This document shows positions 30,945-59,901 of a stretch of DNA of 64,000 nt, in pieces. The notes under the pieces are model-generated. The model worked only from the letters and a program-made list of their open reading frames with translations. It had not been told where the DNA came from and did no database searches. Made by a program: the position numbers and the translations under genes. Source of the DNA: Psammoneis japonica (lineage: Eukaryota); NCBI GenBank assembly GCA_008632985.1, contig QPGO01000051.1, forward strand, positions 186,001 to 250,000. Reading direction: 5' to 3'. Each line of letters begins with the position of its first letter. The first letter of the stretch is position 1.

Positions 30945-31034
30945 CAAGAACTCATCATGAGGGGGGTTCGATCGCAGTCATTATATTCATGGATACACGA
31001 GTGTTATAAACATCAGCTGAATTTGTATTAAGAA

Positions 31035-33854
31035 TTAGGTCGTAGTTTGCTGCGAAAGCCGTTGCGTTTCCGCAGCATCCTCGTGAACTTTATCGTCTGC
31101 GTCTCGCAAATGCTTCAAGACGTTTCGCAGTATCGTCATTCCATGAGCTGGGCTAGTAAGAATCGATTCGGGGTGAAACTGCACGGCAGCAAATGGACGA
31201 TCCACATGTTGTATTCCCATTACTATGCCGTCCTCGCTTGTTGCAGTTACTTCCAGGCACGGAGGGAGCTTCTCTTTGATGCCATACAATGAATGATACC
31301 TTGCCACCTCAAATGTGTCCGGCAAGCCTGCAAAGATGCTGTAAAACAAGCAAATTTTAATGGTAGCAATAGAAAAAAGTTAGCATTGGGAGCCAGTGAA
31401 TCACAATTCCGTGACGTGATATTATCTTACCTGCTTCCTTCCTGTCCTTTGGCTGTCAACGTGACAGGCGACGGTTTCCCATGCATTGGGTAGCCCAAAA
31501 CCCCAAGCTTTCCCCCAAAATGCTCTACCATGCCCTGAAGTCCAAGACAAACGCCAAAGGCCGGGATGCGGTGTCTTTCCAACAAGCCAATCGTCTTGGA
31601 AAGAGCGAAGTCGGTAGGATTGCCTGGACCGGGGGAGAGAACAACGAGGTCTGGTTTGTTTCCGTTTTCAACCATTTTATCAATGGTTGCTAACGCGGTT
31701 GGGCCACTTCGTAGAGTTCGAACTGTAGCTCCTGTTTGGCGCAGATAATTACCAAGAGTGTGCACAAAAGAATCTTCATGGTCAATCAAAATAATATTCT
31801 TGCCAGCTCCAACTGGTTCTTCGACAGTCTCGGCTTCACGTTCAGCTCGGTCTTCCAAAACTTGGTCCTCAGGACCTTCTTGCACAATGGCATCAATCAT
31901 GGCGGAGGCTTTGAGTTCTGTTTCTAATTCTTCGGCAGGTGGACTGGAATCATAAAGCAAGGTAGCTCCTGCTCGGACTTCGGCAAAGCCATCCTTTACC
32001 CGCACAGTTCGAAGTGTAAGACCGGTGTTCATGCTACCATTGAAGCCAACCATCCCCACGGCACCACCATACCAACAGCGTGGAGACCGCTCGTTGTCTT
32101 CCACAAATTGAATGGCCCAAGTCTTTGGTGCACCCGTCACCGTAACAGCCCAAGTGTGGCAAAGAAACGCATCGAGTGCGTCAAATTCGGGTCTCAAATA
32201 ACCTTCAACATGATCCACGGTATGGATAAGACGAGAATACATTTCGATTTGCCTCCGCCCAATCACTTTGACAGATCCTGGCTCACAAATACGGGATTTG
32301 TCGTTTCGATCGACATCGGTACACATTGTTAGCTCTGATTCTTCCTTGGCATTCATAATGAGTGATTTGACCCGATGTGCATCCTCCAAGGCATCGGCGC
32401 CGCGGGCGACAGTTCCAGAAATGGGGCAAGTTTCAACTCGGATCGCATCGGGACGATAGTCATTCTCGGCGATGCTCTCACACCGAACAAACATTTCCGG
32501 ACTCGCACCAACCAAGTACTCAGATTCGCCCAGATTGATAAAGAATCCATATGGAGCTGGGTTTCGGTTTCGCAATCTACGAAATAGGACAGATGGAGGA
32601 GTTTTTTCCGTTAGCTTTTCGCGAAAGGTCTGGCTTAGAACGGCTTCAAACAAGTTTCCGACAGCAAATTCACGTTTGGCACGTTCGACGGATGATGCGA
32701 ACTCGGATGGCGGCGTATCACGGTCAGAAAAGGCTGTTGTGGTTTCGTCAAATGGTACAAAATCTTCTGTGCTGCCCGTTCTTTCCATGCCCTGAGTTGA
32801 TTTCTGGTTTACGCAAAAGTCATAATCCACTGTCCAAGCATCACGTTTATCTTGATCGACCACAAGAATCTGGTCTGGAAGGTACAACAGCAAATCCCTT
32901 TGCTCCTCGTCGCGTTCTTGTTTCAATTCGATTGGTTCAAACTGAAATGTCAAGTCGTATCCAAAAGATCCATAGAGCCCAAGTTGCCCGTCACCACCTT
33001 GAAAGCCAAACAAATCTATAAGAGACCGTACAATCGAAAAGAGAGACGGCTGTTGCATTCAAATTATGAAAGAGGGTTAAGCTACAGAATCTTTGTGTTC
33101 AATAATTAGCACACAGTACATTTTCTCGTACCTGTCTGGACCGTTCCTCTTCGCTAAAGGTTCCAACTTCTGGTGGTGGGACAACTTTCACATCAATGCG
33201 AGCTATGCCACTTCCTTCCCCATCCTCGTGCTCTGTAACGATCGACTCCAACACGCCTTCATCTATAAGCTGTTCCATAGCTTGGAGCATAGCAGGCATT
33301 AGCACGGTACCTCGGTCATTCAATGCGCGTATGGTACATTCACTTCCCTTTCCCGAGACTTCAAGTGGAGGATCCACAAATCCCAACGACCAGCGTGCAT
33401 ATCGTCCAGGAAACTCATATGATGATGTCAACAAAACACCACGATGACTATCCAACTTGGTGATCAAATCTTCAATACGACGGGATGAAGTGTCTCGCTT
33501 GACAGAAGAGGAAAACTCCACTCCTTCCACATGAGCCGTGACCTGAATTCCACCTTTTGTAAGAAAATGACCACCACGAGGACGTGACGGCGGGGCGCCA
33601 AGGCTCAAACCTTGCTCTAGGGCTTGCTGCGATGCTGTAGCAACTCCAGCTCCTCCGGTTTTCGCCACGGGAACGCCATTGAAATCGGGCACTATTTCTT
33701 CTTTAGAAGACATTCTCAAGGCCTCCAATCTCTGAGAAAGTATTGCTGGCCGTTTGATGCCAAACAGAGAAGTAAAGCCGCCAGTCGTATGACACATGGA
33801 GACGCACATCACGACGAGAAGTGCGACTCTTCTAAAAAATGTGGCGCAAAACAT
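31035..33854 (-). CDS. trpE: Anthranilate synthase, fused TrpE-TrpG type, with plastid-type presequence; two introns
   Basis: LLTSSYEFPGRYARW, LYGSFGYDL, LVGASPEMFVR, PISGTVARG, ELTMCTDVDRNDK, TGAPK, RAGATLL. GATase motifs IDHEDSFVHTL, LSPGPG, GVCLGLQ, ARYHSL, VQFHPES. Confidence 0.93.
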
Positions 33855-36263: not shown

Positions 36264-37559
36264 CCTCACATTAACGTGAAGCATTTGACGTTGTACTTTA
36301 TCGGTATCCACTTCTTGGCCTCCGTCGTTTCTGCTCGACAGTGCGTTTTGTGGCGCGAAATGCCAGTGGTCATTCATCATTTGGGTGGGGCTTAAATATT
36401 TAATACCGGTCATTCACGAATGTGTCTCAAGAACTCAAACAAATCATCAAGTCTATATGTTATAATAGTACTTACAGCGTGAAATATTATGGAAATAAAT
36501 GACTTTTGGACATTTGAAAACTGGTACTGACACATTGTGGACTGGACAAAATGGTTTTCGAACACTGCCACATCTCATGTTGTACAGTACAGTCAATCAA
36601 GTGTGCGCACCATTCCTCAAAACACCACACACCATGAGAATCGGAACGGCTTTTTCAACTGTTGCCAATCCTTTCAACAATGCCGACACCACCTGCCAGT
36701 CTTTGCCATCACATGAAAGCAATGTGTGTTGCTTGCATGGGGGCAATCGACCACCAACTGCGACATGAAAAAAGAGCTCCCCAGATGACCCCTCACTTGT
36801 TTTTGCTCTTTGTCATGCCTCAGTTGCACCACGGTTTTGCTTTGTTGTCTCACTCATTTTTTGATGTGATCCTCCTTGTCACTCCTGCACAGAGGCTTTT
36901 GAGCCAGTTGACACCCCGGTGAGAGAGGACAAAAATGACGACACTGCTTGCGGCTTTCCGCGCGCATCTGCTGGGATGATGTTCCGCGCTCTTCTCTTTG
37001 TCACACCACAATGACACTGTCACAAGACCAACACACCACAATCATTGTGAATGATCATCCATCTGCTGGGCTGAAATGCTTTTGCCACAAACACTTTTTT
37101 GATTGTTGTGGGATGCATGTGATTTGATGTTGCACTTTGGTGCTGGCACTCCTCTTGACAACTTTGTTCGGCATGTGTGAGTGCCCGGCTTGTCAAGACA
37201 TGCACAAACTCTTGTTTTCATTGTGATGGAGCTGCTGGCTTGTCAACTCATGCTGGCACCTGCTGAACAAAGAAAAGATTGCTGAAAAGAATTTTGGTTT
37301 TGTTTTGATCATCTCTGAAATGAGCACTGCAGAGACAAGTGCTGTTTTTGCCATTGATTGTTTTTGAATTGTGACCTTGTCATTGGAAAAAAGCCAGAAG
37401 GTGCACATTGATTTTGGGCTGATGGGTCACTGCGCACATTCACACAAAGCAACCATGATTTTGAAATGCCCACCCAAGTCCATTGGCTGTGCACCCAGTG
37501 CACAAAGCAGACTGCCAGACTGCCTGCATGCAAACACAAAGTGCAAACACCAACCAGGT

Positions 37560-39270
37560 GCAACAAACGTGCAGCATGGTGATGCAACCTGGGCGGTGAG
37601 CTCTGAGTGTTTGATCCAGGCAGGGCTTGACAAGTGAGGGTGTTTGACCAACCTGTCAAGTAAGAGCAACAAACATCTTTTGCATCTTTTTCAAACACAT
37701 CAGTTTTTCATGGTCTCTCTGTGCTGTGCTCATGCACTGAAGCTCAGTGCACTTCCCAAATCAATTTTCAGAAAACAATTTTGCCATGTCATTTGCACAT
37801 GGGGCCACCAAGGCGGACCAGCTACTCACCCCTTGTTTGTGGCGCATGAAGGCTTTTTTTGCCATGGGTGCCCGTGAGATGCTGTGTGCACTCTTTTCAC
37901 AGTTGATTTACAAGGTGAAGATTGGCCAAGGACTGGCCACCACATTGCTTCTGTTTTGCAGCCAAGTCTTGCTCCTGAAATGTGAAACACCTTTGCTGTG
38001 AATTGTGTGGCTCCATGGCTGCAAAATGTCAACAATTTGAGCACAGCTGCCCTTGATGTTGTTTGCCAAAACCATGATCATGTGTCACACAAAACAACAG
38101 ACCCAAGCCATTGGTCATGTTTCTTGTCTTGTTTTTTGGTTTTGTGGCACTGCTGTTCTTGTGTGCTTTTTTTGCAAACTCAAGCCATTTGCAAGAGGCA
38201 GCTCACTCAATTGTGTCTCTGCACACCATCAAGTGTCAGAGAGCAGTGGGAGCTGCTTTGACAATGATGCACCAGATGAGGTGCCTTCCCACATCAGATG
38301 TGGCAATTGTGCATTTTCCTCATGCCATTGTTGCAACAAGAAAAAGTGGTTTGGGGTGTGCAATGCTGTGGAAAGACATGAGGAAGAACAAAGCATCAGC
38401 CAAAGAAGGCACATGTGTTGTCATGTTGCACATGCAGTGCAACAAAGTAAAAAAATGTCTGCCATGTCACAGCTGGTTCAACAGACCCCTGGTCAGGAGC
38501 AATCATTTGTTGTTCTGTCATGAAGCTTGCTTGCAGTGCCAGCTTTCTGACTCCTGCATTCTCAAAGCAAGGGTGGATGACATGTTGAAGGTGGCTGTTC
38601 TGTGATTTGTGGTTTCTGCTGCTTGCTGTGTGATTGTTTGCCACAATCCATGATGGGGTGATGTCTCGCCACAGTTCACAAAGTGTTTGACCAGAACTTT
38701 CAAAGACAAGACACAAGCCCGCGAGATTTGTTTGTCCAGAGCATGCAAAGCACAACCACTTGTCCCTGATCCAAGAGGACCTCATCAATGACCTTGTTTG
38801 TGTGAAGCTCATGCAGAGCAGCAGAGTGGCATTGCAGTTGCAAATGAGTGCCCAGAAAGTTGCAGCGGCAGCAGAAAGAAGAGGGTGGAGCTTGCATCTC
38901 TGCTGCAGGTGCAGCCATTTGCAAGAGGAGCCAGTGTGAGTTGCTTCTCTGGAGAGGAGGCAAAAAAGTGTGTGTGTGCCTTGTGGGGTGCAGAAATGGT
39001 GGAGAGAGCAGAGGCAGGGCAGCAGCACAACTGTCTGAGATGGCTGGTGGCAAAAACAGCACACCGCCATCTGTGCGTGGGGCTGCAGCAGTCTGTGTGT
39101 TCACACTAGACTCTGCCAACATGCACAGAGCACAAAAAGCACAGGCATGATGAAAGATGATCTCAAAAAGACTCAAACAGATTGTTTGCAAACTGGGGAA
39201 ACCTGCTGCTCTCACAAGATCATTCTTGTTGGCTGGGGCTCAAACAAAGCCAGGGGTGGCCAAGCAGAGG
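37560..39270 (+). repeat. Diverged direct repeat, copy 1 (about 1.7 kb)
   Basis: Shares blocks such as cccaaatcaattttcagaaaacaattttgccatgtcattt and aagaaaaagtggtttggg with 42120-43820. Confidence 0.85.
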
Positions 39271-41562
39271 TGGCTTTCAACAGCTTTCTAGCACCCACAT
39301 TGCTCCAGCTAAATTTGGAGGAAAGTGAGTTTTGAATGATCTCTTTCAGTGCATGGTGCCAGTGTGATCTTTTCACTGTGGACAAGCAGCAATGACGAGG
39401 CGGAAACTAAAGAGCAGGAACAAACCAAGGTGTGGGTGTGGCCCACAGGACACACCACAAAGACAAAGTTCAACGTTGAACATGGCAAGTTGAATTGTGG
39501 GAGACAGGAGGCTCTGGGCAACACTGACAAAATTGCAAGAGTGCAATCACAAACAACTTGCCGCAATGGCCACTTTGCATGTTTTGAACCAAAGCAATCA
39601 AAGAAGGAGTGCAGATTGTGCCCCACAAAGCTTGTTGTGGATTGCGAGGAAGAAGCAGCGACAAGACAAGAATGATTCAATGCCAATGGAATGGTGCCAT
39701 CCTTTGAAGGTGAACAAATGAGTGAGTGACTTGATCAGCTTTGCTTGGACTCTGCTTCAGGACAGTGCACGGTTTGAGGAGAAGAGCATTTCCAGGACAT
39801 TTGCTCACCACACATTTCACCAAGTCTCTTCAGCACCAATTTTGGAAAGTGGCAGCACATGAAGTCAACCCCTTTCAGGACCCAATGCTGGCACCTTCAA
39901 CTTGATTTGACAGCACAGCCATGTGAAGAAAGTCTCCAGCAGAAATTGCAAGAATTGCTTGAATTGCAACATTGAGCAAGATCTCCGGCAAGCTCTTTCA
40001 TCAAAAGAATGTTCTCAAATTGCAGGAGACATTGGAGGATCAGGAGACATTGGAGGATCAGATGGTTCCATCTTTGATGCATTGGAAGCAGCCACACTGC
40101 ACGATCTGATGACTGCTGTGCAGCCAGACAACTGTTGAGTGTTTGCGCTGTTCTTTCAAGAGAAGGATCAGTTGCACCCACGGACAGGACTCCATTTAAA
40201 AGATTGAGAGCCGGTGTGCTGCCTTGGTTGCAGACATGTCTCTTCACAAAACTGGAGGAAATGTGCAAGAACAATGCTGAGCCAGACTCTCTCTGGATGG
40301 GTGCACACAAAGGGCAATGCAGTCACAGGATTTGTTGGCAGTTTTGGTGCTGTGTTCAGATGCTGACTTCTTTGTAAACCATGGCGTGAGAAGGCTGGCC
40401 AAAGAAAGCTGTTGAGCCATTCAAAGAGGAAGTGCTGCCTTGCTCATGTGCACAAGATCTTCTTGATGATGCTTCTTCTGTTTGCTTTCAATGACCTCAT
40501 CTCTCCCTTTCACTTTCTGCAGACAGATGGATTGAGAAGGGCAAGAAATCAATGGCACATGGCATTTCCACTTTTCAAACTCAATGAGATGCTCCAGATG
40601 ATGCAAATCTTGCTGCCCAGTGTGGGTGGCCCATTGTTTTTGCATTTTGTTTTGGTCAAAAGGTTGTCAAGAATCAAAAGAACTTTTCTCAACAGCTGTG
40701 GGAAGCTGCAAATGTCTGCACCAATGCTGGCTTTCTTCACCCAAGCTTGAGACTGGATCAGGCCTGAACAACTGCTGCTCTGTCATGTGTGAGAAACAGA
40801 CTGTCAAGCCAGCCATGACTTGCGCGAGCCTTGCAAGCACAAAATGACAAAGGCTGTCTCAATGTCATGTGGTCTTTGCTGGTGCACACATGGGTTGCTG
40901 GTGCACTCTGCATCAAGCAGCAATGAGCAACAATCAACATTGGTCACATCATGACTTGTGCAGTCAAAACATTTTGGGGGTTCATTTTGCCAGCTGAGGC
41001 ACAATTCAATGTCATGTCTTCACTGTTCACTGACAGCTGCTTCATTGTCCTCACCACCAGCTGCTGACCAACAGTGCAATCACTTGGCTCCCACAGACAA
41101 ATGATCAACAGTTTCTGCTGAATGTGAGGATGATGGGTCTTTGATGCCAATGGCCCATCCTGTTCCTTCTCCTGCCAATGCCAAGGTTGCAACTGTGGCA
41201 GTTGTTGCAGCTTTTTGACAGGCACCAGGCCCTCCCTTGAGTGACCAATGATTGCATGCTGCAGGCATTGAGAAAGCCATGCATCACTTTGCACCCATCT
41301 GGAGCTGGCTGCTCCTTGCAAAACACATTTTGGAAAGCTTTTTGGAAACCCTGATGGGATGCCATGGTTGATTGATCAAAACAAAGGCAAGGCGACTCTC
41401 CTGATTTTGTTGGCACTGCATGTTCACACGAAGCCACACAGGTCTCAGAACTGCCAGAGTGCTGCCTGCATTCTTTCAGAAGGATCTCACTCAAGCACAC
41501 AGGGACTGTTTTGTGATGTGCCATCATGATGTGGCAAACATCAATGGTCAGCGCACTTTTCC

Positions 41563-41790
41563 ATGACAAAAAACAACTGCGCACTTTCACATGACAAAAA
41601 GCAGCCATTCACCTTTGACAAAAGCTGACCACACACTTTTGCACAACAAAAAACAACCACAAACTTTTTCCTGACAAGAAACAACCACTCATCTTTACAA
41701 AAAACAACCATGCACATTTGCACAACAAGAAACAGCTGTGGACTGTTGTCAAAAAACAACCGCGCACTTTCACACAACAAAAAACAACCA
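41563..41790 (+). repeat. Degenerate minisatellite of about 25-30 bp units (acaaaaaacaacc..cacttt), roughly 8-9 copies
   Basis: Recurrent acaaaaaacaacc / acaagaaacaacc cores. Confidence 0.7.
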
Positions 41791-42119
41791 TCAATTCAAA
41801 TTTGTCCATTGTGCAGGGCGTCACACAAATTTCACAGTGCTGCTGTGAGACCCAGGCCTCAGAGTCTGTCCAGCCAAACACTGTCATGCATGGGGGTGTG
41901 ACCACACCTGCGTCACACAGGCTTTTCTGATGATGTCACATGGCACACCCGCGGTGTTTGTCCAAACACATTGGTGTGCATTGTGATGGCACATTGCTTG
42001 ATGGACGACATTGGTCACATGATTCAAACTTGCAGCACGCAAAGCAATGCAACATGAATGAAACAGCAACAGCAACACCATGAGAATGACCTCACCATGA
42101 TGATTTTTTGCCATGGCAC

Positions 42120-43820
42120 AGCACGATGCAACCAGCGCAATGCAACCTGGGTGAGCCCTGAGTGTTTGATGCTGGTGGAGCTGAGCACTGCTTTGTGCAG
42201 TGGCTGCACACTCACCTCAGCCCTTCAGTCAAACAAGTGAGCAGGTGTTTGATGAACTTGGGCAGTCAGAGCAACAAGCAAATTTTGCATCTTTCTCAAA
42301 GAAACCACGTGTGTGCCCACATCATGGTTTCTCTGCTGAGACTGGCTCAAGCTCAGCATGCACTCCCCAAATCAATTTTCAGAAAACAATTTTGCCATGT
42401 CATTTTCCTGGGCCCACCATGGCCAGCAACTCATCCCTTGTTTGTGGCACATGAAGGCTCTTTTTCTGACCATGAATGCCAATGAGATGTTGTGCACTTT
42501 CTTCACAGTCCATTCACAAGGTGGAATGAAGAAGAACAGCCAAGGACTGGCTCTCACATTGCTCTGTTTTGTGCTGGCAAAAAGTCGCTCCTCCTGAAAC
42601 ACCTTTGCCATGATTTGTGTGGTTCCTCAGCTGAAAAAACATCAATGATTGGAGCACAGCTGCCCTCAATGTTGTCTGCCAAAACTGTGATCTCATGTGT
42701 CATGTGAGACAACAGAGCCAAGCCACTGGTCGTGTCTCTCATGTTGTTTTTTGCTGCTGTTCTTGCACATTTTTTGTGAGCTCAAGCCACTCATGAGGCA
42801 GCTCACTCAAATGTCTCTGTGCACTGTCAAGTGTTGGAGAGCAGTGGGAGAGCCATTCTGACAACATCACACCAGATGAGATGCCTTTCCATGTCAGATG
42901 CGGCATTTGCACTCTCCTCATGTCATTGTCATGGCAAGAAAAAGTGGTTTGGGAGGTGTGCTGTGGGGAGACACACACAAAAAAAACAGAGCATTGGCTG
43001 AAGAGAGGCATGTGTTGCCATGCTGCCCATGCAACACTCCAAAGCAGAAAACTTCTGCCATGCCACAGCCAACTCCAAAGACCCCTGGTCAGGGGTGTTT
43101 GTTTGTTGTTCTGCCTTGAAGCTTGCTTGCTGCACCGGCTTTCTGACTGCATTTTTTGAAGCATGGGTGGCTTGCACATTTTTGAAGGTGGCTGTTGTGC
43201 AATCTGCTGTGTCCACTGCCCCCCACCATGATTGTTTGCCACAATGTGTGGTGGTGTTGGCTGGTTTGCCACAGCTCACAAAATGTTTGACACCANNNNN
43301 NNNNNNNNNNNNNNNNNNNNNNNNNNNNNNNNNNNNNNNNNNNNNNNNNNNNNNNNNNNNNNNNNNNNNNNNNNNNNNNNNNNNNNNNNNNNNNNNNNNN
43401 NNNNNNNNNNNNNNNNNNNNNNNNNNNNNNNNNNNNNNNNNNNNNNNNNNNNNNNNNNNNNNNNNNNNNNNNNNNNNNNNNNNNNNNNNNNNNNNNNNNN
43501 NNNNNNNNNNNNNNNNNNNNNNNNNNNNNNNNNNNNNNNNNNNNNNNNNNNNNNNNNNNNNNNNNNNNNNNNNNNNNNNNNNNNNNNNNNNNNNNNNNNN
43601 NNNNNNNNNNNNNNNNNNNNNNNNNNNNNNNNNNNNNNNNNNNNNNNNNNNNNNNNNNNNNNNNNNNNNNNNNNNNNNNNNNNNNNNNNNNNNNNNNNNN
43701 NNNNNNNNNNNNNNNNNNNNNCAACAAAAGCACAGGTGAGATGAAAGACAATCTCAAAAGGACTCAAACTTGTTGGCAGGAGCTCAAACAAAGCGGGGCA
43801 CATGCCAGCCAAGCGGAGGG
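42120..43820 (+). repeat. Diverged direct repeat, copy 2 (spans the N gap)
   Basis: Homology to 37560-39270 holds at an offset of about 4.6 kb on both sides of the gap (43722 matches 39131). Confidence 0.85.
43296..43721. other. Assembly gap (N run)
   Basis: Ns in sequence. Confidence 1.
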
Positions 43821-45013
43821 GGCGGGGAAATCAGTGCTCCTTGGGAGGATGACTCCAGATGCTGATCCAAGGACTTGCCTTCTCACCTCTTTCTTAGAAA
43901 CACATTGAGCACAGGTGTCGTGATGGTCAGAGAGCCAAAGGAACTCTGTGTCAAGACAACCTTCAGGATCACATGTTTGCTGGTGATGGTTTTGGGGCTC
44001 ACAGCTCGCATGATGGCAAGCACTCATCACAACGACGGCTGCAACAACTCTCCTCTGATTGGATGTCTAGAAACAGCAAAAAACAAAGATCTTCAGTGAG
44101 AAATTTGCTGAAAGAAAACAGAATTTGTGGCGCGCACATCATGTCAAGAAGACTCGCTGTTCAACGTCGCTGTGTTTTGCATCTCCCCCACTCCATCACA
44201 ATTGTGCTCATCGCTCAAGTCGGGGAATCAGGTGCAGCTGCTGGTGGGGGGCAATTCTGCATCATCTCTGTGCAAATGATCCAACAGAAAGACAAAGACA
44301 CCATCAGTGCGACGCTGCACTCTCGAGGCAAAAAGGAGTCAGCGAAGAGCGAGAAGAATGTGCAGAGTGCAAGACCACTTGCAGTTCGGTTGTGCCACTT
44401 TGTTGCAAGAGGTGAGCAACAATTTTGCAACTCATGCTGCCTGCTTCTGCAAGGCTCCCCGCCACGGTCCTACTCACAGTCTCCCTCACAGTCTCCTCAC
44501 GCTGGTTCTGCCTGGCAATCACTCTGTCATGCAGCGCCAATCGAAGCTGCTGGTTTCTGCTGAGTGATTGAGAGATTGTGGCACTCTGTTTGCCAACGGA
44601 GGTCACACATGCAGAGTCATTGTCATGTGTGCTGACCTTGGATGACTCGTCGAAGCACGGCGAGGCGTTTGGTGTTGTTGGTTTGTTGCTGCGGCTTCGG
44701 CTTCCTTTTTGGCTGGCCGGTGCTTCCGAGAACTTGTTCGTTGGTTGGGTCTTGCTTGCTCCGCTTTGCTGCTGCCGCTTCTTTTGGTGTGCTCTGTCCC
44801 TGGCTTTCCTTTCAGCCTCTTCGTCTGGTTCCATGAGAAGAAGAAGCTTGCAACCTCACCTTGTTGTCGTTGGTTCGATGAATGAACTTTTCAGAAAAAC
44901 AGCGCAGTGCGGGTGCAGGTACTACAAAATAACGTGGGAAGATACAGTACGTCGTAGCTCTCCGTAGAAATCCTACGTAAAACAATCCTCAGCGAACAGA
45001 ATTCTCACACAAA

Positions 45014-45150
45014 TGTTTCACGAGCGTTTCACTGGCGTTTCACGGGCGTTTCAAAACGAATTTTTTTCGTGTATTTTGTGCGTAGTCTGACAAAAAAAAA
45101 TGTCAGACGGGTGTCAGACGGATGTCAGACGGATGTCAGACCAGGTCAGA
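45014..45150. repeat. Two adjacent 11-bp tandem arrays (gcgtttcacgg-like x4; gatgtcagacg-like x5), likely TE subterminal repeats
   Basis: gtttcacgagcgtttcactggcgtttcacgggcgtttca and tgtcagacgggtgtcagacggatgtcagacggatgtcagaccaggtcaga. Confidence 0.8.
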
Positions 45151-45362
45151 AAATTTAATTCAAACGCTGGGGAGAGATGTATAGTATTACTTCTACGTGG
45201 AACCTACGTTCCATACAGTATCTGCAGAGAATCAAACATCACCATGACCTCATCTCACCGCAGAAACACTATTATTTCGACCTCCTTTTTGGTCACAACA
45301 ACATTCATCTGCGGGTGTGCTGAACCGGAATGCATATTTTAATTGAGACGCCATGTAAAGCA

Positions 45363-46268
45363 ATGATGTTGAGAAGAATTCTTCTGCTGCTAACTGCTGT
45401 GTCGGCGTCGCCCACATACCCTTCTGACCCTCCAATGTTGATTGATAAAGTAGTTCCGTTTCAGCGATGGACGGAGCACGGCTCGTATGTGACGGGCTTG
45501 ATATTCACCTCTCCCGCAACGACTAGCAATATGGGAATTAGTTGGACCCGCGGCATAACCAATCATGATCCATACTGGTTCAGCGTAGATGGAGACTCAC
45601 CGCAAGTTCTGTATTGGCCGAGCAAAGGTGAGGGAGAGAATTTTCTAAGCAACTGGAACGTTGATACAAAAACTGGGGGGACGCGTCAGTACGATGCTGC
45701 CATGTTTACTCCGAATACGCCTAATTCGTATGGCTTGAAGAAGGAAATGCATGTTGTTCGATTAGAGATAAACGACAAGTACGGATCGACGAATGGAGTA
45801 CACTTTGTGGCTACAGACACGCAAGTTGTTTGGACTCCCACGAAACATCTCTCGAGAATGAGAGCCAAGTTCGACCGATGGGTCAGGTCCAAAGGACACA
45901 AAGCTCAAGCCGTAATCGAGGTGTTGCAGAATAGAATCATCAACCAAAACCCTGGAGGAAACATTGGCAACCAAAACATTCAAGTGGCCGAGTTTCCCAC
46001 GTATCATAACGGTTGTCTGCTCGTCACATTTTATCGTCAATTGAGCAATACGTTGACGTATCCCCCAGAGATCGACCCATCGTATTACTGCGAACCTGGC
46101 ACTCCTTGTGCGCCACCACCATATACTCAGCGAGTCATTGAGTTTGGGGTGGAGGAGTACATTCAGTATGAAAAGTGTCGAGGAAAGAGCAAACTCAAGA
46201 AAACGGGTGTTGATCGGAAACGATACATCAAAGACTCTCGACGAGTAGCCTCATTATATGGATACTGA
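45363..46268 (+). CDS. Secreted hypothetical protein, intronless
   Basis: About 300-aa ORF with signal peptide MMLRRILLLLTAVSA and normal codon usage; no family recognised. Confidence 0.65.
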   Translation: MMLRRILLLLTAVSASPTYPSDPPMLIDKVVPFQRWTEHGSYVTGLIFTSPATTSNMGISWTRGITNHDPYWFSVDGDSPQVLYWPSKGEGENFLSNWNVDTKTGGTRQYDAAMFTPNTPNSYGLKKEMHVVRLEINDKYGSTNGVHFVATDTQVVWTPTKHLSRMRAKFDRWVRSKGHKAQAVIEVLQNRIINQNPGGNIGNQNIQVAEFPTYHNGCLLVTFYRQLSNTLTYPPEIDPSYYCEPGTPCAPPPYTQRVIEFGVEEYIQYEKCRGKSKLKKTGVDRKRYIKDSRRVASLYGY

Positions 46269-46675
46269 GGACGTGGGAGCTTGAAGCGAATGTGGAATAC
46301 GGCACCAACACGCTTGCAGAGTACTTCTAGGTCAGGTTGCTCCGGATCCTGTCCCTTCTGCCGAATTGTAATACAACTTTGTGAACCTTGCGTAATATCT
46401 CGCACCTCGTCATGAATTCGCAAGGTATATATAGCTAACATCTACTCTAGCTAGTAGAGAGAACTACCCTCCAAGCTTCGGAAAAGCGCTAACCGAAGTA
46501 TTCATACCGGTATGCGGCGCATGCAGGCAACTTGAACGCGAGCTATCATGGCATCTCGGACCTCGTGCTCTGACCTCTGACTCATCAGTCGAACGTTAGT
46601 GCGATGACAAAACAACTCACGATGGCGGCATGAGAAGGGGGCAAGAGCAAATGCAACAACTCATTCAAACTCGGC

Positions 46676-47343
46676 GAATGCAAAATAGAATAATGATAAA
46701 GAGAAAGGCATTGCTCTCGTTCTTTTCGTTCATGGCCTTATTCCTCATACCAGCGAGTGGGTTATCCTCCCAAAAAAGACATGGTCGAGTGACAAAGTCT
46801 GCTGTAAGACAACCTCGGCTGAAACTACCAGACTCGATTGAGGAAATGCTGTTTCCAGCAGAAACTGTTGAAGACGTTGACCCAGAGAAAACTCTCGCAG
46901 AATTCTAGTTTCAAGACGATAATGTAAAAACGGCTCAAGCTAGTATGGAACTGTATCTGAATCAATGGGCTTTCAAGCTTGCTACGGACGATCAAAACGG
47001 ATTGTCTACTCCAATCACAGCTTCTACCTTTTTGAAACAAAGTTCAACCGAGTCTCGTCAAGTCATCATGTTTCGACCGCCTCCCAGATACTTATCGTAT
47101 AACGAGCAAAAGTCCATGGAAAAAGGTCAGCTTCCGGACCGCAAAGGAGCCAAACTCAACTCAAAGAGTCCCGGGGGTGTTGAGCTGCATTTGGCAGTCG
47201 AAGGTGACATTCCATCGCTGAAAGCCAAAAGATGTGGAGTTGATTCTGATGCAATCATCAAAGAATCCAGTGAGCGCGCTGTCATCAGGAGATTGACTGA
47301 AGCTTGTCGGATCTGGCAAAAAGTGCGAGCAATGAAAACATGA
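46676..47343 (+). CDS. Hypothetical protein with signal peptide; frameshift near 46900
   Basis: ALLSFFSFMALFLIPASGLS leader; continuation ELYLNQWAFKLATDD...FRPPPRYLS...PGGVE...IIKESSERAVIRRL. Confidence 0.6.
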
Positions 47344-48566
47344 GCGTTGATGATCACTCGGGAGTGTTTATGCTGGAAGTAGTAGGTCTCGAGTGTGTCT
47401 TTTGAAGGTGCAGGTCCTTGATATGATGCCAGCCCTACCGGTAGAGCCCTGTCATACAGAGGATGCCAAATCTCACAAGAAAGCAAGCGGGCAGTATTCT
47501 TCAACCTAAGCGGGGGGATTCGTTTGCACAGTATCTTTTTTCCAACAGAATCATTGCTAGTGAGATTACTGACCGGCACTATATTATATAATGGTTTGAT
47601 GATGAAAATTTCAAGATTTTCTCATGGAAGGACTCACGATGATAAAAGCTGGAATGTGTGCTAGGTTCACAGCCTACCCAGAAGCGTAATCTCTGTCACC
47701 TCCAACCTCTGCGAAGAAACTGGTCAAAGTCGGGAAGTCTACTCTAGTTTATGAAAAGCTTTGTCACAATGGACGGTTACTGTGTCAAATTACTTAATCT
47801 TGTCCTGCGTCAGAAACAAACGGCGAGAATGCTAGGATTGCGATTCCGGCAAGTATCGGGATGTATCTTGAGCAAAGGCTGAGTGATAGTATCCAGAGCC
47901 ACCAAACAGATTGATCAATTGATTCGAAGCCAGGCATCCATCGCTGGATCAACGTCTTTACGAAACTATGCAACGTCCTTTTCCACTCGCGAATTCGAGC
48001 GAGAGCAGGATTGTTTCAATTGTCAATCGGAGAAATGCCTAAGCCATTGCAAAGAATAGGCCTAAACTAGATAACATTCATTGCGAACAAAAGCTGCTAT
48101 CCATCTGAACCTCTCTTCTCCACGAACAAATCGGAGATTGCTATCACCAAGCTCAAACTTGCCATTAACCAGTGAAATTCGAGAAATGTGAGCGGGATTG
48201 TTGGCTTTCCTACGGGATTTCTGCGGGCACCGGTGCGCTTCCTACTCAGTCACGAATGACAGTGCCAGCCTCATCTTAAAAAGCGATGACCGTGTTGCTC
48301 ACGACGCGTGCAATTCTAACTTTTGTTGCATTGAAATAATCTCACCAATCTCCATCTTTACTGACACCATTACACCCATTATGATTGCACACATTGTGCT
48401 AATTATTCCATCACTGTCGATCTCCCCTGCTGCGCGCATTTCACAGCAAGCAGAACCACACAGCAAGAACTTTCTTTGGGCGACCTTTTGCTGGGATTCT
48501 TCCTGCATTGCTGTGAATGAGATCAGCTGGATGATTCGAGCTCTCTGGTCCTTTGTCCTTGCAGGC

Positions 48567-48848
48567 NNNNNNNNNNNNNNNNNNNNNNNNNNNNNNNNNN
48601 NNNNNNNNNNNNNNNNNNNNNNNNNNNNNNNNNNNNNNNNNNNNNNNNNNNNNNNNNNNNNNNNNNNNNNNNNNNNNNNNNNNNNNNNNNNNNNNNNNNN
48701 NNNNNNNNNNNNNNNNNNNNNNNNNNNNNNNNNNNNNNNNNNNNNNNNNNNNNNNNNNNNNNNNNNNNNNNNNNNNNNNNNNNNNNNNNNNNNNNNNNNN
48801 NNNNNNNNNNNNNNNNNNNNNNNNNNNNNNNNNNNNNNNNNNNNNNNN
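48567..48848. other. Assembly gap (N run)
   Basis: Ns in sequence. Confidence 1.
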
Positions 48849-51225
48849 GCTCCAAGAGCTCTTCACATGCTTTTGCGCACCCATGTTGGATTGGGTGCAA
48901 ACTGCAACAGCTGTTGAGCTGGTTGACACTGTGGACAACAACCCTGCTGCAGTGGTGGAAGCAGCTTTTGAAGTGGGCAATGCCAACAAGGAGCCTTGTG
49001 ATGTTTCAAATGATCCTGCCTGGTGCTGTGGCCACAGACAATGCTCCAGCTGATGCAAAGGTGAGAGCACTCCTGTTGCTGTGGCAGAGGAGCATGTGGT
49101 TGAAGGCTTGGATGGTTTTGCAGCAGTCACATGACATGGGTGGCTGGCACAACAATTGATGAAGAAGCACCCATTCCCGCTGCTGATGTCAAGGAACAAC
49201 CTGTTGTTGCTGATGCCATGAATGACCCAGCAGCTGCCGCCCACCACAATGCCAAGGAAGGTTCAAGCAACAGCTGGGTTTGGAGAAGCAACAGATGAAA
49301 TGTAGAACCTGTGGCAGAAAATGGCAATGGAGTTCAGGCAAACATGCTGAAGCTTCTTCAAGGCAGAGTCAAGTTGGCAGCAGGTGTGTCTCACAACATT
49401 TTGTTGTTTTCTTTAGATTTGCAATTGTGCCAGTTTTGACATTTTGTTTTCAAGCAGCACCAAGATTTGAATTGTTCAGGAATCAATGCACTCAGCATCC
49501 AATGACAAGGGAGGCTTCCACAGTGTTTGAGAAATCATGCACAGTTGTTTTGATTTGGTCAATGGGAGTCATCCTCCACACTCTCCAACATGGCCTCTCT
49601 GGGTGTCTCAAGCCATGGCACAGTGAGCTCAACAGCTCCACACCCACACCACATGCAAAGTTGCGGACAGTGTGACCCTGGCTGTGGTGGTCACTTGGGT
49701 TCATTCTTGACCAGTGCTCTCAAAACCATGCACTGCTGCTGAGACATTCTGTGCAACCTCTTCAGGCTCAGGACAACGGTGCTTGTTGTTCTTTTTTGAC
49801 TAAAACCAAATCCACTCACACACATGCCATGAGAAAAGACAACATGCCAGCATCAACCCTTGATCTCTTCAGATGTCTCAACCCCAATGGCAATGAAGCC
49901 ATTCTTCCTCTCCCACTGCTGTGTGCTGCAGGGGCCCAAATGTTGCCAGTGTTCCTCTGGCATCAACATCAGGCAAGCATGGAAAGAGCACTTGACTGTG
50001 GGATTTCATCTGTGCACTCCAGCCTCCAGCTTGAGCAACCATGACGCAGGCACATCAGCTCAGCAGCACCACCTTGTGGGAAAGCTTGAGAGCCACAGTG
50101 GTTGCACTGAAAATGGACATTTTTCAAACACCTCCTTGATGCCACTGCCAGAAGCCCCGATGACATGCTTTGTGGTAGAGCACAAAGGTCAAATCCATTC
50201 TTCAAACACAGCCATCTTTTCCTTGTTGAGCATCAACTTTGAAAGTGCACAATCTGATCCCATCAGCTGCGACTGTGCAAGCACCGCTGTTGCTGCCAGT
50301 TGCTTGCTTTTTTTTCTGGACATGGGGCAACAAGCCTGTTGCAGCACACACAAGCCTGCCATGCCAAGCCACAACAAGCAGCACACTCCTTGTGAGAAAA
50401 GCTGCACCCTCTTGGTGTGATGTGTCTGGCAATTTTTGAAAATTCTGCTCAAAAGGGAGAGATGACATCACCAAGTCAGAACCACACAAAGCCAGACATT
50501 TGGTCTCCTTTGTGGAGCAATTGGGGAGGAGTTTCCCAGGAGAAGCCAGAGTGAGAGCTCCAGCAAGCCAGGGCAAAACACTTCGTGGCTGACAATGTGC
50601 GCTCCTGGGTCATTTTTTCTTTGCTGAGGTCTGGCACTTGCTTTGAAGCTGCAAATTGGCAACTTTGCAGTGTCCAAGAATGACGCCAAAATGTGTGCAA
50701 GTTCATGCTACATTCTTTGCTGCAACTCAAGAGTGCTCGCGCTGTTTTTGAAAGGCGCTCTTGTTTTTCTTTCCCGCTGGCAACAGCCAGTTGACTCAAG
50801 TGTTGCGCCACCACTCAAAGCCTCAAGGAATTGCCCAGGAATGACAGAGAGTCCACCAAAGCTGCTGCCTGACCAGGGATGGAAACAAAAAGCAGGTGAG
50901 CAACAACAAGAGGCAGCTGCCCACGCACCAAGGGGCAATTGCGGGCAAGGAAAGTGCGTCATTTCTGCTTGATCTGCGGGGTTCTTGGATCATTTCTCCC
51001 AACCTGAAACCCCCCAAAATGCTGCTTGAGCCAGTGCTCATTGCACATGACATGGAACAAGCATCAACTGCTGTTGCACGAGCAACAAGTTTTCCAATTT
51101 CTCAAAAGGGATCAACTGCACAGCATCAACAACGTCCATCCTCCTGTCCATCCTTGCTTCAACTCGTCTTGCATTCGCCCCAGCAGAGGCTGAGCAGATG
51201 CGTGGGATGTGCGATGCATCAGACC
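48849..51225. mobile_element. TpA/CpG-depleted degenerate TE-derived sequence, class unclear
   Basis: Same dinucleotide signature as the other islands; ORFs almost Tyr-free. Confidence 0.6.
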
Positions 51226-53078
51226 CACAGGAAACGAGAATCCACGGAATCACACGGAATGTGCACTTTTTCTCCTCATTCCGTTTGTTTGTTCCGTAAA
51301 AAATGAGGCCTTTTTTCGTGCTCCGTTTTGGACTTTTCCAAGGAATGTGCCCTCATGTTCCAGATGGAAGTGTCAGCAATCGGAGTGCGATGGTCACATT
51401 CCGCTCCGATCACCAAGACAAGTGCACTCCGTTTTCGTGCGGAGTGTGAACTTGAAACTGGAACAACCGCTTCATTCCGTGCACAGACTGAGGCCAACGG
51501 ATTTTGTTTTCAACAATGTGCCATTTGTTGGCACAGAGCATGTGTTGAGGCAAAAAATTGCAACGAACATTGTCCACATTGGCCGGTGTCACTGCTCTGT
51601 TGTTCAATGCTCTCTGTTCGTCCCTCTGTGATGATTCAAGCAACCAGTGTCAAGAATGACGGTGAGATGTTTGATGCTGCAATGCTGCAAGACCGCACAT
51701 TGTCGTCATGGCATGCACTGCATGTTGTTGTCGTCTTTGATCGTGGAAAATGTTGTGCAGGATGTTCACATCTTTGTTTTTATTTTAACTCGTTGTGCAG
51801 CAAAGAAGACAGCACAACAATGATGGCTCAAATGTTCAATTGACATTGGAGTGAGAACCCCAAAAGGATTGTGCATTTTGTCATTGTTTTGACATTGCAA
51901 CATGTCATTGACAAATTAAGGACTTTTAAAATGAACAACTCAAATCACACATTTGAAGTGATTGCATCAAAAACAAAGAAGAAAACATTTGATGACCATG
52001 TGCTGATGTGTTTGACAGCACGTGGAAAGATGTCGTTGAATTCTACGTGACTTTGATTGCTCTGCAGAAGGTGCGATGATTTGCACCAGAGGAGAGGATT
52101 CGCGTCGCAGCCACATCTTCTTGCACTTCTTCTCGTTTGCTCTCATAAAAAAACGCAACACAGCCAGCGGCAGAGCGCATCTGAAGCAACAACGGCAAAC
52201 AATGGGAAGAACAACAGGATGAGTGAGTGGTGTGATTTGTGACAATTGCAGCACACACGATGGCAAGCCATGACGTGATTGTGCAGCACTTCAAAGGTCG
52301 CTTGCACTCACATTTTCTTCTCTCTTTTTGTGGTTGGGGTTTGTTTCTGTTTCCAGAGTCCAGAGGGCTCTGGTTCCAAGTTTGGCAAAAGAGACGTCTG
52401 GACAGCTGCACCCATCAACGGCCCGCAAGTGCAAGCTTCGTTTTGCTTTTTCTGTCACACTGAACGCGTTGCTCACTTTTGGCTTTGTCACATGTTGCTC
52501 ATGTTTAGGAAAGGTTGAAGTGCCCCTTGTCATCCATTGGGCACCCAAGACAATCAAAAGAAGAAATGCATTGTTCTGAAATTCGGCTGAGTGGTGCAGC
52601 AAAGCGATCGGTCGTGCAAATGCAGGCAGAGCACCAGCGTGGGCGGAGCAGGAGTTCTTGCTGTGCAATGGAAATGCAGCAGCACAATGATCCTATTTTA
52701 GAATTTCACTTGATTCCGCAACGTATTCCGCATCACAAGCTCTAGAGACAACATGCCACATTCCAGCCACAACACGGAAAGTGAAGCCATTGCATTCCGT
52801 GTCATTGGTTGAGCGAAAGGAATCCACAAACGGAATGTGGCAAAAGGAACAGCAAATGGAATTTAAAATAAATGGCCTCTTTCTAACAAACGAAATGGTG
52901 AAACGTAATATGCAAATTGCGTCTTGGGTACGGAATGAGTACACACGTCGGAATGTGATGCGGATTTTGATGAGGCTTTTTTCGTTTTGCACCCTGTCAT
53001 TCACATTCCGTTTTGAGGCTTTTCGCGACGGAGTCGCGCACACATTCCGTGCGATTCCGTGGATTCTCGTTTCCTGTG
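51226..53078. mobile_element. Non-autonomous TIR DNA transposon of about 1.85 kb with 38-bp inverted repeats and dispersed CATTCCG subterminal motifs
   Basis: 51226-51263 cacaggaaacgagaatccacggaatcacacggaatgtg versus the reverse complement of 53041-53078, one mismatch (CG vs CA). Confidence 0.8.
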
Positions 53079-53244
53079 TGTGGCCCCGCATTGCGGTGCC
53101 GCAAACATGCCGATCTGCGTCTTCAAGCTGTTGGAGATAAAATGGGCAGAACTCAAGAGTTTATCATTGTCTACGCATAAATATGTCTGATTCTGGGTCA
53201 CAATTAGATCGCTTAACTTTGGAAGAAACGGGTTGCAGCGCTCC

Positions 53245-54058
53245 ATGAACTTCCGCTGTTCCTGCCGCCCCAGTTTCTGACTAGCGTTATTCTTCCACGG
53301 GTGTTGGGTACATTTTGTGTGTTGGCGTTTTTGTTTGCTTTGGTATTGCAGATTCTAGCTCGAAATGATCGGTATTCTCTCAGAGAAGTCTACAAGATTA
53401 GTTATCAGTTTGTCAACGGCTGCGTCAATCTGACACTGGGAATTTTGGGGGTTTTCTTTTGCTTCACTCGAGTAACGCTGCCCAGTCAGACGGAAACGCT
53501 GGAGGAGAGAATTATAAGTCCGATATCACAAGAAAGTTCTGATCCCAATGACTCATTCATATACTGGTTGTCTTGTATTCAACTTGGTTATCAGCTATGG
53601 GCCTTGCCTGTTGGGCATTATTGGGTTCGAGAATCCACCGCCATGCTTTTTCATCATGTCGCCGTCATTTTCGTGGCGTGCCTCTCTGCTCTTTTCACCA
53701 ATGGCTTTGTCTTTCACAATCCATATTTCTTTGGGCTATTTGAACTCAGCAGTGTCCCATTATCAGTCATCAATTATTGCAAGGACCGCGCAAAACAGAC
53801 ACGGCGACATATCAAGTTGCTCGAGTGATTTTTGCCATTCTCTTCTTGTCCATTCGGATATACATGATGGTTCCACGCAAAATCGATTTTCTGACATTGT
53901 GCTGGAATTCAGCCCAGACTGCACCCAATCCCTTTCTTCGTGTATACTTGACATGCTGCTGTTGCGCTTCGTTCTTTTTGGCAAACTTGCAGGTCTTCTG
54001 GGCAACGCTCATCCTCAAAGGTATCTACAACATGATCAGACCCAAGAAGAGCATATGA
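53245..54058 (+). CDS. TLC-domain (TRAM/LAG1/CLN8) membrane protein; frameshift near 53790; start uncertain
   Basis: QLGYQLW, MLFHHVAV, FFGLFELSSVPL, VIFAILFLSIR, LQVFWATLILK. Confidence 0.8.
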
Positions 54059-57812: not shown

Positions 57813-58313
57813 CTTGTGCGTAACACCATTTTTTGTAGGTAAAGTTTAACGGGACTGCGGGGCTCTGAAGATGAGATGTGATGCAACATGCAACAACCGA
57901 TGAGGTGCGAGGTGCGAGAGGTGATGCACGTTGTGTGATGTGCCGCTTTTTTTTGCCGTTTTAGATAGAAAAACGACATAAAGCAAAAACGTTTTCGGTT
58001 TTCGCATTTCTTACACTGAATTTTGAAATTTTATTAAACTTATTCAAAGTTTAGAATAGCATTGTGGGTTGAGAATTCCGTTGAAGTATTTGACAATGTA
58101 AGTCTCTGAATAAGTCATAGTTCTGCTATCGCTTAAATTACCGGAAGGCGTTTCAAAATACCCAACGTCCATCTATCAAGTACTCCTACGGTACTACCGG
58201 TACCGGTATGATAGTTGGATGGCTGGAATGGGTCACTGCAAACTGCTCACGATCTCCTAACTTGTACCGTATAGAAAATAACAACAGAACAACGACAACT
58301 ACTAGCAGCTATC

Positions 58314-59901
58314 ATGATATCATCCCGATGGGTTGTGGTTTTGATTGGGCTTGTCGTCCTTGGAGTCACGCAATTGATTCTGTTGTTCTCGGCGACCGCA
58401 CAGCGCACTTTTAACCCGGACGCGGAAACAAGAGCATTGTCTGCTGAGTTTGAGTACTCGCACGCTTACTCATCCACCGCAACTAGGTCACATAATAAAA
58501 GAGTGAACGCAGGATCTCTTCCTATTGATGACAAAAACTGGCAATTTGAACCAGCCGAAAGCAAGGCAATTCGTAAATGGGGATGCGATCGCACCGAAAC
58601 ACCGTTTGTTTTTGTTCACATTGGAAAGGCCGGTGGAGGGAGTGTGAGGGGAAGACTAGCGGCAAGTAGTCACAACTACACAAGAGAAAGGCCCATGCAT
58701 CCAGATATGGCTTACTATCCAGTTCTGGAGGAAGGCACGCACGGGAATGGAACAACCACTATTCGAGCACGTTTTTGTAATAGTTGTTTTAATCATCGTC
58801 GACCGGTCGTAGAAAAGGCATACGAAGGTACACTACTCTGCCAGGCTTCCACTCCAATTGGACAAGCAATTGGTTGTCCGGAAATAGTCTCAAGGTATCA
58901 ACAAGGACTTGAACAGTATCCGGATGCATGTGGTCTGGATAACGATCGTTGTGATCTGGTGTACCTCGGCCACAACTTGTTTGGTGCTGAAATGCATTGG
59001 CTTCCGGGACCGTACCTTGCAAAGTGGTGGTCTGCTCGGTGGGGAAACAACAACACCGTGACTTCACTCTGGAAACGTCTAGACGAGAACAAAACATGGT
59101 GTCCCCTTCACGACATGGAGAGACCGCAATCCTCACGCGGCTACAAGATGAACTATGACAAGTGCTCTGTCCCAATACAGAATCACGTTGATGTACAGGC
59201 AACTCTGTCGCTTTCCCCTTTCCTTGCTGGAGCTCAAGGCCTAGAGATTAAATCATGGTCGCCCATCTATGCATCCATGCCCGTTCTTCGGGCAGTCTTG
59301 GTTCGAGATCCCTTTGCCTGGCTCTTGTCGAAATACATGTGGCACCGCAAAGTGAGAGACACTGAAAACCCCCCCGCCAAAATGTGACGATATCGAAACA
59401 GCGGTGCAGCGCGGCATCAAGATTTCCCCCAAAGAGAATAGTATGGATGTTGTTAAACCAGGGTGGCTTCATCGCATGTCGCTCGGGTACATAATGTATC
59501 TGTGCGGAGAAGACTGCATTGTACGACATGCTTCTGGAACAGCTACTTTGGAAGATTTGGAACGACAAGCAGAGGGTAATTTGCGTCAGGGTTTTGCAGT
59601 GGTGGGACTGCTCGAGGATGGCGATCAAGTCTTTTACGACATGATTTCAGCTCGTGTACAATACATTGACACGTCGCTCAACTCCCATGTTAAGGGAGAA
59701 CATCACTCTACCCAGAAAGCCAAGGAAGTGTCAGCGTGCCGTCAGTTGTATGAAGATCCATCGTTTCAACAGAAATTGATGGAGGCGTCACCAGAGTTAG
59801 CGGTCCTCGACCGATTGTATAAAGTTGCAAAGGAAGTCAACAGATTCCAACGAAAAGAGTTAGAGGGGTGTTCTAAAAAGTCGTTCATTTCGAAAAATTG
59901 A
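58314..59901 (+). CDS. Golgi-type (type II membrane) sulfotransferase-like protein; frameshift at the C7 run near 59370
   Basis: N-terminal TM anchor, 5'-PSB-like FVFVHIGKAGGGSV, 3'-PB-like VLVRDPFAWLLSKY, C-terminal NLRQGFAVVGLLE and LDRLYKVA. Confidence 0.8.

Follow-up and report, generated by a model that had tools for sequence, protein, structure and literature searches.

Hypermutation is a known defence against selfish nucleic acids, as illustrated by the editing of retroelements by ADAR/ADAT enzymes and by APOBEC3. In fungi, repeat-induced point mutation (RIP) converts CpA into TpA, enriching the affected DNA in TpA and in A+T. The subject of this article is a 64,000-nucleotide stretch of DNA from the diatom Psammoneis japonica (GenBank assembly GCA_008632985.1, contig QPGO01000051.1, positions 186,001 to 250,000 of the forward strand; hereafter the window, in which coordinates are counted from its first letter), where five intergenic zones, or islands, together covering ~29% of the window, are nearly without the dinucleotide TpA (TA). 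The relation of this loss to the decay of CpG (CG) in the same zones is analysed here and compared with the hypermutation systems described so far.

The closest described system is that of the chlorarachniophyte Bigelowiella natans, in whose mutation-accumulation lines 231 of 302 nuclear mutations were concentrated in two integrated viral regions, where the rate was ~6e-7 per site per generation (Mettrop et al. 2026, bioRxiv 10.64898/2026.01.13.699255). Among these 231 mutations, the preprint counts 230 as A>G or T>C, all 230 of them on TpA and giving TpG or CpA; the rate is put at ~1000-fold over background, only some lines are affected, and an ADAT2-like deaminase is proposed (bioRxiv 10.64898/2026.01.13.699255). 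CpG and diatoms are never mentioned in its text (bioRxiv 10.64898/2026.01.13.699255). No second paper on TpA hypermutation was found among open-access papers and preprints, and the phenomenon has so far been documented in one preprint and one chlorarachniophyte. In the same literature, no account was found of diatoms losing TpA and CpG jointly or showing RIP-like mutation. Related studies report that many diatoms carry DNMT4, a relative of the RIP factor RID with unknown function, and that diatom transposable elements (TEs) are CG-methylated (PMC9998398), list uncharacterised deaminases in stramenopiles (PMC3239186), and describe DNA editing by ADAT2 in amphioxus (PMC10354150).

The zones of the window and their parts, none of which is assigned to a strand, are the following.

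4185–6036: zone A, a smaller zone, TA-poor with intermediate CG loss.
24600–25606: zone B, a smaller zone, TA-poor with intermediate CG loss.
36589–44919: zone C, 8.3 kb, with an N gap at 43296–43721 and 15 TA in total; it contains the segment 44581–44880, from which the analysis started.
36589–36999: left margin of zone C, 0 TA and 15 CG in 411 bp.
37000–44000: core of zone C, with TA and CG nearly absent (CG 0–4 per 200 bp).
44001–44919: right margin of zone C, 2 TA and ~37 CG, in multi-copy DNA.
48405–52693: zone D, with an N gap at 48567–48848, a core at 48849–50580 and a right margin at 50581–52693.
60051–63377: zone E, with a core at 60250–63000 and margins at 60051–60249 (9 CG) and 63001–63377 (24 CG).

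The background of the window contains 42.8 TA and 53.6 CG per kb. The pooled cores contain 1.9 and 7.8, in agreement with the sequence-only reading of this DNA, which had described island cores as lacking both dinucleotides, and the pooled margins contain 2.7 and 39.6. Zones A and B, taken together, hold 4.2 TA, 17.5 CG and 212.5 TG/CA per kb. In the islands CA/TG rises to 204–237 per kb and G+C is slightly higher (46.8% in the background, 48.3–49.3% in the islands), while AA/TT remains flat at 159.7, 164.0 and 167.7 per kb. Against a median gap between TA dinucleotides of 15 bp, the longest TA-free gaps in the zones measure 2199, 1321, 1073 and 1020 bp, the first three of them in zone C, where TG+CA reaches ~45–55 per 200 bp inside compared with ~28 outside. 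The islands are all intergenic, and the promoters of adjoining genes retain normal TA.

The CpG-poor cores are nested within the three large zones, and a CG-retaining margin is present at 8 of 10 zone edges, as read from the zone positions. This nesting is one-way: nine windows of 400 bp are TA-poor and CG-normal, and the reverse occurs in one, which is borderline. The margin segments singled out by the sequence-only reading were recounted and stand: 44581–44880 has 0 TA and 16 CG in 300 bp, 63001–63360 has 0 TA and 23 CG, and the two segments called similar, 60061–60240 and 51181–51480, have 0 TA and 8 CG in 180 bp, and 1 TA (at 51297) and 18 CG, respectively. Sampling noise, to which such segments might have been ascribed, is ruled out by counting 300-bp windows with no TA at all, which make up 160 of 1,249 in the window, 0 of 871 in its background, and 0 of 4,679 in related diatom contigs whose G+C is similar and which total 246 kb. 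With a background mean of 12.7 TA per 300 bp, the Poisson probability of none is 3e-6, and a chance origin of the TA-free windows is thus excluded. Ten of the 160 also have at least 12 CG, with starts at 44101, 44501–44601, 51301–51401 and 62951–63051.

The two losses differ in both degree and spatial profile. TA retention is similar in margins (0.064) and cores (0.044), while CG retention differs fivefold (0.739 and 0.145), so that the losses are decoupled within the window, as had been proposed from the sequence; the ratio of log losses is 9.1 in the margins and 1.6 in the cores. Pooled over the 10 zone edges, TA falls from 54 to 1 per kb in one step and remains at 0–6 inside, the inside values being the informative ones since the edges were defined by TA itself; in the first 500 bp outside the zones TA stands at 31–54 per kb. 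At the same edges CG declines gradually, from 43 through 22–30 to 10–14 per kb over ~600 bp. The two profiles therefore do not coincide within the window, TA forming a step and CG a gradient. In the cores, CpG survival depends on the flanking bases, being 0.02 for TCGA and 0.09 for ACGA compared with 0.48 for GCGC and 0.42 for CCGC. Deamination is favoured by A/T flanks and local melting, which would match this dependence.

The dinucleotides that were lost can be accounted for almost exactly. In the cores, TA is lower by 40.9 and CG by 45.8 per kb (86.7 in sum) and TG/CA is higher by 89.8; in the margins, where the loss is mainly of TA, the corresponding values are 40.1, 14.0 (54.1 in sum) and 57.1. 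With TG/CA standing in for the TA and CG that are gone, the paucity of both is the result of mutation and not of native composition. In silico conversion of TA and CG in the window's own background reproduced TA, CG, TG/CA and G+C in cores and margins alike, whereas conversion of CG only gave 193.7 TG/CA per kb compared with the observed 236.5, a shortfall of 43 per kb. The constancy of AA/TT indicates that the process acting on A:T pairs requires the full TpA step, which argues against error-prone patch repair and ADAR-like context rules.

Additional evidence is provided by a pair of direct repeats within zone C.

37582–39275, plus strand: direct repeat copy 1, a long-terminal-repeat-like (LTR-like) or tandem unit inside zone C.
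42140–43823, plus strand: direct repeat copy 2, inside zone C and interrupted by the N gap.

The two copies, at least 1.7 kb long, are 73.5% identical over 1107 alignment columns and 87% identical when recoded as purines and pyrimidines, with 167 transitions and 79 transversions. Their alignment shows 40 TG/CA swaps, with every other double difference occurring at most six times; each copy has therefore separately resolved an ancestral self-complementary CG or TA. If CG were the only source, 24.0 swaps would be expected, significantly fewer than were counted (P=0.0018); CG and TA as joint sources would give 45.5, which fits. In a runs test, the 40 swaps form 18 strand runs compared with 20.8 +/- 3.1 expected (P=0.23). 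Three CG survive at the outer end of copy 2 at positions that read CA in the more deeply placed copy 1, a small hint that CpG retention depends on position and not on age alone. Self-comparison of the purine/pyrimidine-recoded sequence under a strict score, made to detect concealed relationships among cores, margins and islands, returned nothing beyond the repeats already known.

The direction of change was read from contigs built from a public sequencing run. The margins and their surroundings (44000–45333 and 50670–53337) reach summed contig depths of 184–689, compared with ~58–85 in most other bins, with up to 10 distinct contigs on one place, and accordingly belong to multi-copy families; in the right margin of zone C the summed depth is 198–293, with up to six contigs on one place. 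The cores are at about single-copy depth at a likeness of at least 80%. A contig of 1530 bases covers 49366–50902, in the core of zone D, with 0 other letters and at about haploid depth (31.6), which establishes the core sequence as real. Among the variant rows listed, 26 of 40 lie inside TA-free zones, and 20 of these 26 pair CA/TG in the window with TA (6) or CG (14) in another contig, the reverse being found in 2. The remaining four are other changes, and in three of them the window has G or C against A or T in the sister. Since the TA and CG alleles are carried by the sisters, in fact by the same two contigs, and CA/TG by the window, the window copy is the derived one.

Six TA-derived sites among the listed rows, all within 122 bp, read CA, CA, TG, TG, TG and CA. 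This interleaving of TG and CA, free of strand runs, indicates a process that acts at the DNA level, hits either strand and treats each site separately. Two candidates were rejected on these grounds: RNA-level A-to-I hyperediting of a retroelement is ruled out by products on both strands together with unchanged AA/TT, and strand-wise miscalling by the interleaved products. The claim of the sequence-only reading that margins keep CpG holds in part: their 39.6 CG per kb bears it out, but only in relative terms, as 44329–44639 has CA/TG at 14 sites where the sister rows listed have CG. Its further statement that TA loss is faster can be judged from the 26 listed rows, in one margin. As for the alternative offered there, that TA loss spreads farther, at least two of the margins are themselves multi-copy DNA, so the TA-free edge may itself correspond to an element boundary.

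Several other observations were made on the contigs. Exact-match contigs with depths of ~29–37 cover 45664–47131, 47316–48566 and 49366–50902. A second contig, 10–12% different and at a depth of ~59–60, lies on 45664–46244 and 49366–49913, where the locus is either heterozygous or has a diverged second copy; this contig, too, is without TA and CG in the short pieces displayed.

The islands are likely repeat relics, holding internal repeats, tandem duplications and a piece of the following element with terminal inverted repeats (TIRs).

51223–53081, no strand assigned: non-autonomous TIR element; its terminal inverted repeats are 41 nt long and 95% complementary, and its numerous subterminal repeats are of CGGAATG/CATTCCG type.

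At the left terminus of this element (51226), seven differently flanked contigs come to an end, and its body is covered by 7–10 contigs. Alignment of its two arms revealed no homology past the 41–43-nt termini. Inspection of the zone edges by eye gave no convincing target-site duplications, and tRNA and Rfam scans for boundary elements found none. A search with HMMER of the 234-aa open reading frame (ORF) at 38399–39100 on the minus strand returned 0 matches among 1.84 billion proteins. In zone E, the tandem duplications 60260–60446/60457–60643 (98%) and 62293–62358/62367–62432 (95%) are near-identical. They are young relative to the hypermutation, because both copies are already TA-free. The core of zone C includes an A-rich block (41543–41797) of degenerate tandem units of ~50–130 bp; at 41601–41800 there are 86 A and 19 G, and 37 CA compared with 10 TG.

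Taken together, these findings are probably explained by a region-restricted, TpA-specific hypermutation (A:T>G:C) that struck repeat or foreign DNA and was overlaid by methyl-CpG decay of independent origin. The islands would be old, silent repeat or foreign DNA situated between diatom genes. The first process would turn nearly every TpA of a sharply bounded segment into TpG or CpA by A>G change on either strand of this self-complementary dinucleotide, affecting some copies of a repeat family and sparing others; chemically, adenine in DNA would most likely be deaminated to inosine by an enzyme requiring a 5' T, as proposed for B. natans. The second process would be the ordinary conversion of methylated CpG into TpG/CpA, slower and graded, and weakest in the outer 0.2–2 kb of the zones through either lower edge methylation or younger outer insertions. 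The zonation would then result from the first process saturating the whole unit while the second lags at the edges. What the window shows directly is the pattern, together with its mass balance, direction and edges and the decoupling of the two losses; the enzyme, the trigger and the methylation are inferred. The view of the sequence-only reading that two mechanisms are at work, and not a side effect of the deamination of 5-methylcytosine (5mC), is supported by the unchanged AA/TT and, independently, by the TpA process of B. natans. A broader and tentative proposal, which we consider somewhat unlikely, is that TpA-directed DNA editing may be an old genome defence shared by algae of the SAR group (stramenopiles, alveolates and Rhizaria), here a rhizarian and a stramenopile, which would recognise a silent or foreign unit as a whole and remove its TpA up to sharp boundaries, before and independently of a CpG methylation filling it from the centre. 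If so, the TA-free step edge would mark the unit of recognition, and in this diatom the process would have reached saturation in roughly a quarter to a third of a gene-rich region that is otherwise ordinary.

Several points weigh against explanation by hypermutation with superimposed methyl-CpG decay. It is drawn from a fossil pattern in one 64-kb window, which merges the two processes in time, and a scan of related diatom contigs totalling 422 kb, themselves repeat-poor, turned up no TA-free stretch. The contigs used for direction come from one public run and one sample, possibly the assembly's own, and the variant rows are 40 listed of 1,225 variant places. At 44300–44650, 13 CG have been kept and at least 14 lost, so the ancestor was CpG-richer (at least 27 CG) and the CpG loss of the margin is understated there. 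Both the mass balance and the simulation take the ancestral composition to be that of the background, and the simulation leaves a misfit, with GC dinucleotides at 77.5–78.2 per kb observed compared with 57.8–65.5 simulated and AT in deficit at 49.1–54.5 compared with 59.9–68.1. A Pfam scan of 141 island ORFs of at least 70 aa gave 0 of 141 at the curated cut-off, with no TE or viral domain, so that it is the repeats, by themselves, that speak for foreign DNA. The TA-free edge at 52693 runs through the TIR element, whose left 1470 bp contain 8 TA and whose right 390 bp are of normal density; a positional domain accounts for this better than recognition of the element as a whole would, unless the family is natively TA-poor in that part. 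In extent, the ~96% loss of TpA here is far from the state of the B. natans regions, which retain 3.3% TpA.

As a separate observation, the islands differ from the background (56.0 GC, 67.8 AT per kb) by a GC surplus of 77.5–78.2 and an AT content of 49.1–54.5 per kb, with a deficit of GA/TC as well, and these departures exceed what TA and CG conversion predicts. A weaker A>G change outside TpA in the islands is possible.

Among the alternatives, one would dispense with a deaminase, and we regard it as unlikely. A heritable modified base, for example an oxidised thymine of the 5-hydroxymethyl- or 5-formyluracil kind or a modified adenine, would be written symmetrically on TpA in silent chromatin and would miscode at replication as 5mC does at CpG. 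Its target would be self-complementary like CpG, with both strands affected independently, and the strict dinucleotide requirement implied by unchanged AA/TT resembles that of a sequence-specific writer. Thymine hydroxylation is known to prefer TpA in dinoflagellates and kinetoplastids. However, no such base was found reported for diatoms in the open-access literature, where the listed papers naming both 5-hydroxymethyluracil and diatoms (12 of 15) all bear dinoflagellate titles, and the sole paper on the TpA phenomenon favours deamination (bioRxiv 10.64898/2026.01.13.699255). It is very improbable that a single mechanism acted on both self-complementary pyrimidine-purine steps, TpA and CpG, and that the margins are merely CpG-protected. 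TG/CA is the end product in both cases, each loss is greatest where the flanks are A/T, and CG-poor cores always lie within TA-free zones; nevertheless, the loss ratios of margin and core are sixfold apart, the edge is a step for TA and a gradient for CG, and the TpA process of B. natans, being AT>GC in 210 of 211 cases, has no C>T partner (bioRxiv 10.64898/2026.01.13.699255).

It is barely credible that TpA loss is collateral damage from the repair of deaminated 5mC, caused by error-prone patch synthesis around T:G mismatches. Such a process would link TA loss to methylated DNA and would keep CG, through repair, while nearby A:T pairs mutate. However, AA/TT is unchanged, although the polymerase known in this pathway also hits AA, TA loss is complete where few CpG have been lost, and the edge is a step instead of a decay with distance. 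Polymerase eta prefers WA motifs. An equally meagre chance is given to native composition, in which the islands would descend from an element, foreign or propagated through RNA, that selection had kept poor in CpG and UpA; joint avoidance of the two occurs in many RNA viruses. Here the listed sister contigs have TA or CG at the exact sites where the window has CA/TG, two repeat copies in the same orientation differ by 40 TG/CA swaps, and the mass balance is exact; furthermore, TA observed/expected is 0.01–0.06, far past any avoidance known to us. The probability that modified DNA led base calling, polishing or assembly astray is next to nil. N gaps do lie within two islands, and the best-matching run may be the assembly's own data, but independently built contigs of that public run repeat the core without a single differing letter, adjoining sites alternate between TG and CA in a way unlike a strand-wise miscall, and the two repeat copies differ there.

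The window itself is gene-dense eukaryotic nuclear DNA of diatom-like character, with ~47% G+C and long ORFs nearly without introns. These include FMO-like, ferric-reductase-like and PPR proteins, a Na/Ca-exchanger with EF-hand, and a fused chorismate-binding/GATase protein whose best matches are diatom proteins, at 83% and below, the named ones being from Nitzschia inconspicua (79%), Cylindrotheca closterium (78%) and Fragilariopsis cylindrus (78%). The gene order from the Na/Ca-exchanger with EF-hand through the ORF at 29935–30702 to the PABA synthase (28279–33058) is kept in several diatom metagenome contigs (L004, L006, L012, L040 and L043). In a tblastx comparison with 73 metagenome loci, order was conserved at 28.3–30.9 kb only, none was found on the other side of the PABA-synthase gene across 33–37 kb, and no empty insertion site was found in relatives. 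The 370-aa ORF at 58275–59387 lacks a Pfam domain and belongs to a family of ~500-aa hypothetical proteins (39 matches, E down to 1e-91); most of the matches are unnamed, and the named ones include the diatom Cylindrotheca fusiformis and the dinoflagellate Prorocentrum cordatum. A partial second copy of this ORF, 87% identical (58310–58729/63608–64000), begins 230 bp past zone E, so that zone E is flanked by two paralogues whose TA content is normal. Additionally, a 67-nt near-perfect palindrome (25776–25842, wider 25714–25906; 92.5%), rich in CG and TA, lies ~170 bp outside the right edge of zone B, and the promoter-side spacer just outside zone C (45030–45150) contains short tandem motifs, comprising GTTTCAC-GGCG units and four ~11-bp units of GTCAGACGGAT type.

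In relation to known systems, fungal RIP resembles the process in these islands as a DNA-level, dinucleotide-specific transition hypermutation that ruins repeats on both strands and can be copy-specific. It differs in that TpA here falls (to 1.9–2.7 per kb), CA/TG and G+C rise, and the mutated base pair is A:T and not C:G. RIP proper, with C>T at CpA and enrichment of TpA and A+T, was tried as a candidate and rejected, as these features were not found. A:T-directed hypermutation in one dinucleotide would be its mirror image. As regards duplicated segments, the margins are multi-copy, the cores are at about single-copy depth, and the TIR element is only partly affected. Methyl-CpG decay, known from silenced transposons of vertebrates and plants, matches the conversion of core CpG into TpG/CpA and its greater extent with A/T flanks, but it leaves TpA alone, and zones that are TA-free and CG-rich are unexplained by it. 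ADAR/ADAT editing shares the A>G outcome and a preference for U or T before the edited A; however, RNA editing would mark one strand and ADAR edits ApA too, whereas here both strands are affected and AA/TT is untouched.

By analogy, the islands are best read as the product of the same kind of regional, TpA-restricted A:T>G:C hypermutation as that of B. natans. In both, TpA appears to be the sole target and gives TpG or CpA according to strand, known here from the sequence footprint; discrete regions are affected between normal flanks, in some lines there and in some copies here; and, as in the preprint, long-term TpA depletion with CpA+TpG gain occurs in clustered 1-kb windows. At the thresholds given there, which were set on another genome, 16 of the 64 1-kb windows of the present stretch show this combination, in runs of 7, 4, 3 and 2. 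The differences concern the host, a diatom (stramenopile) here and a chlorarachniophyte (rhizarian) there, the targets, here intergenic repeat relics of 1–8 kb plus a portion of a TIR transposon, all lacking any detectable viral gene, and in B. natans viral inserts of 25–186 kb, and the nested CpG decay, with its gradient beside the step edges of TpA. Such islands are probably under-annotated in diatom genomes, because repeat and domain finders do not pick them up (none of the 141 ORFs matched), and their signature of TA-free, TG/CA-rich segments with step edges can be scanned for in other protist genomes; they also show where the enzyme and the trigger may be sought. If this reading is true, the process is not peculiar to one strain, acts on small repeats besides giant-virus inserts, and is separate from CpG methylation decay. 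Compared with B. natans, what is new here is the diatom host, the near-complete loss of TpA, the small repeats as targets, and the relation of step to gradient between TpA loss and CpG decay.

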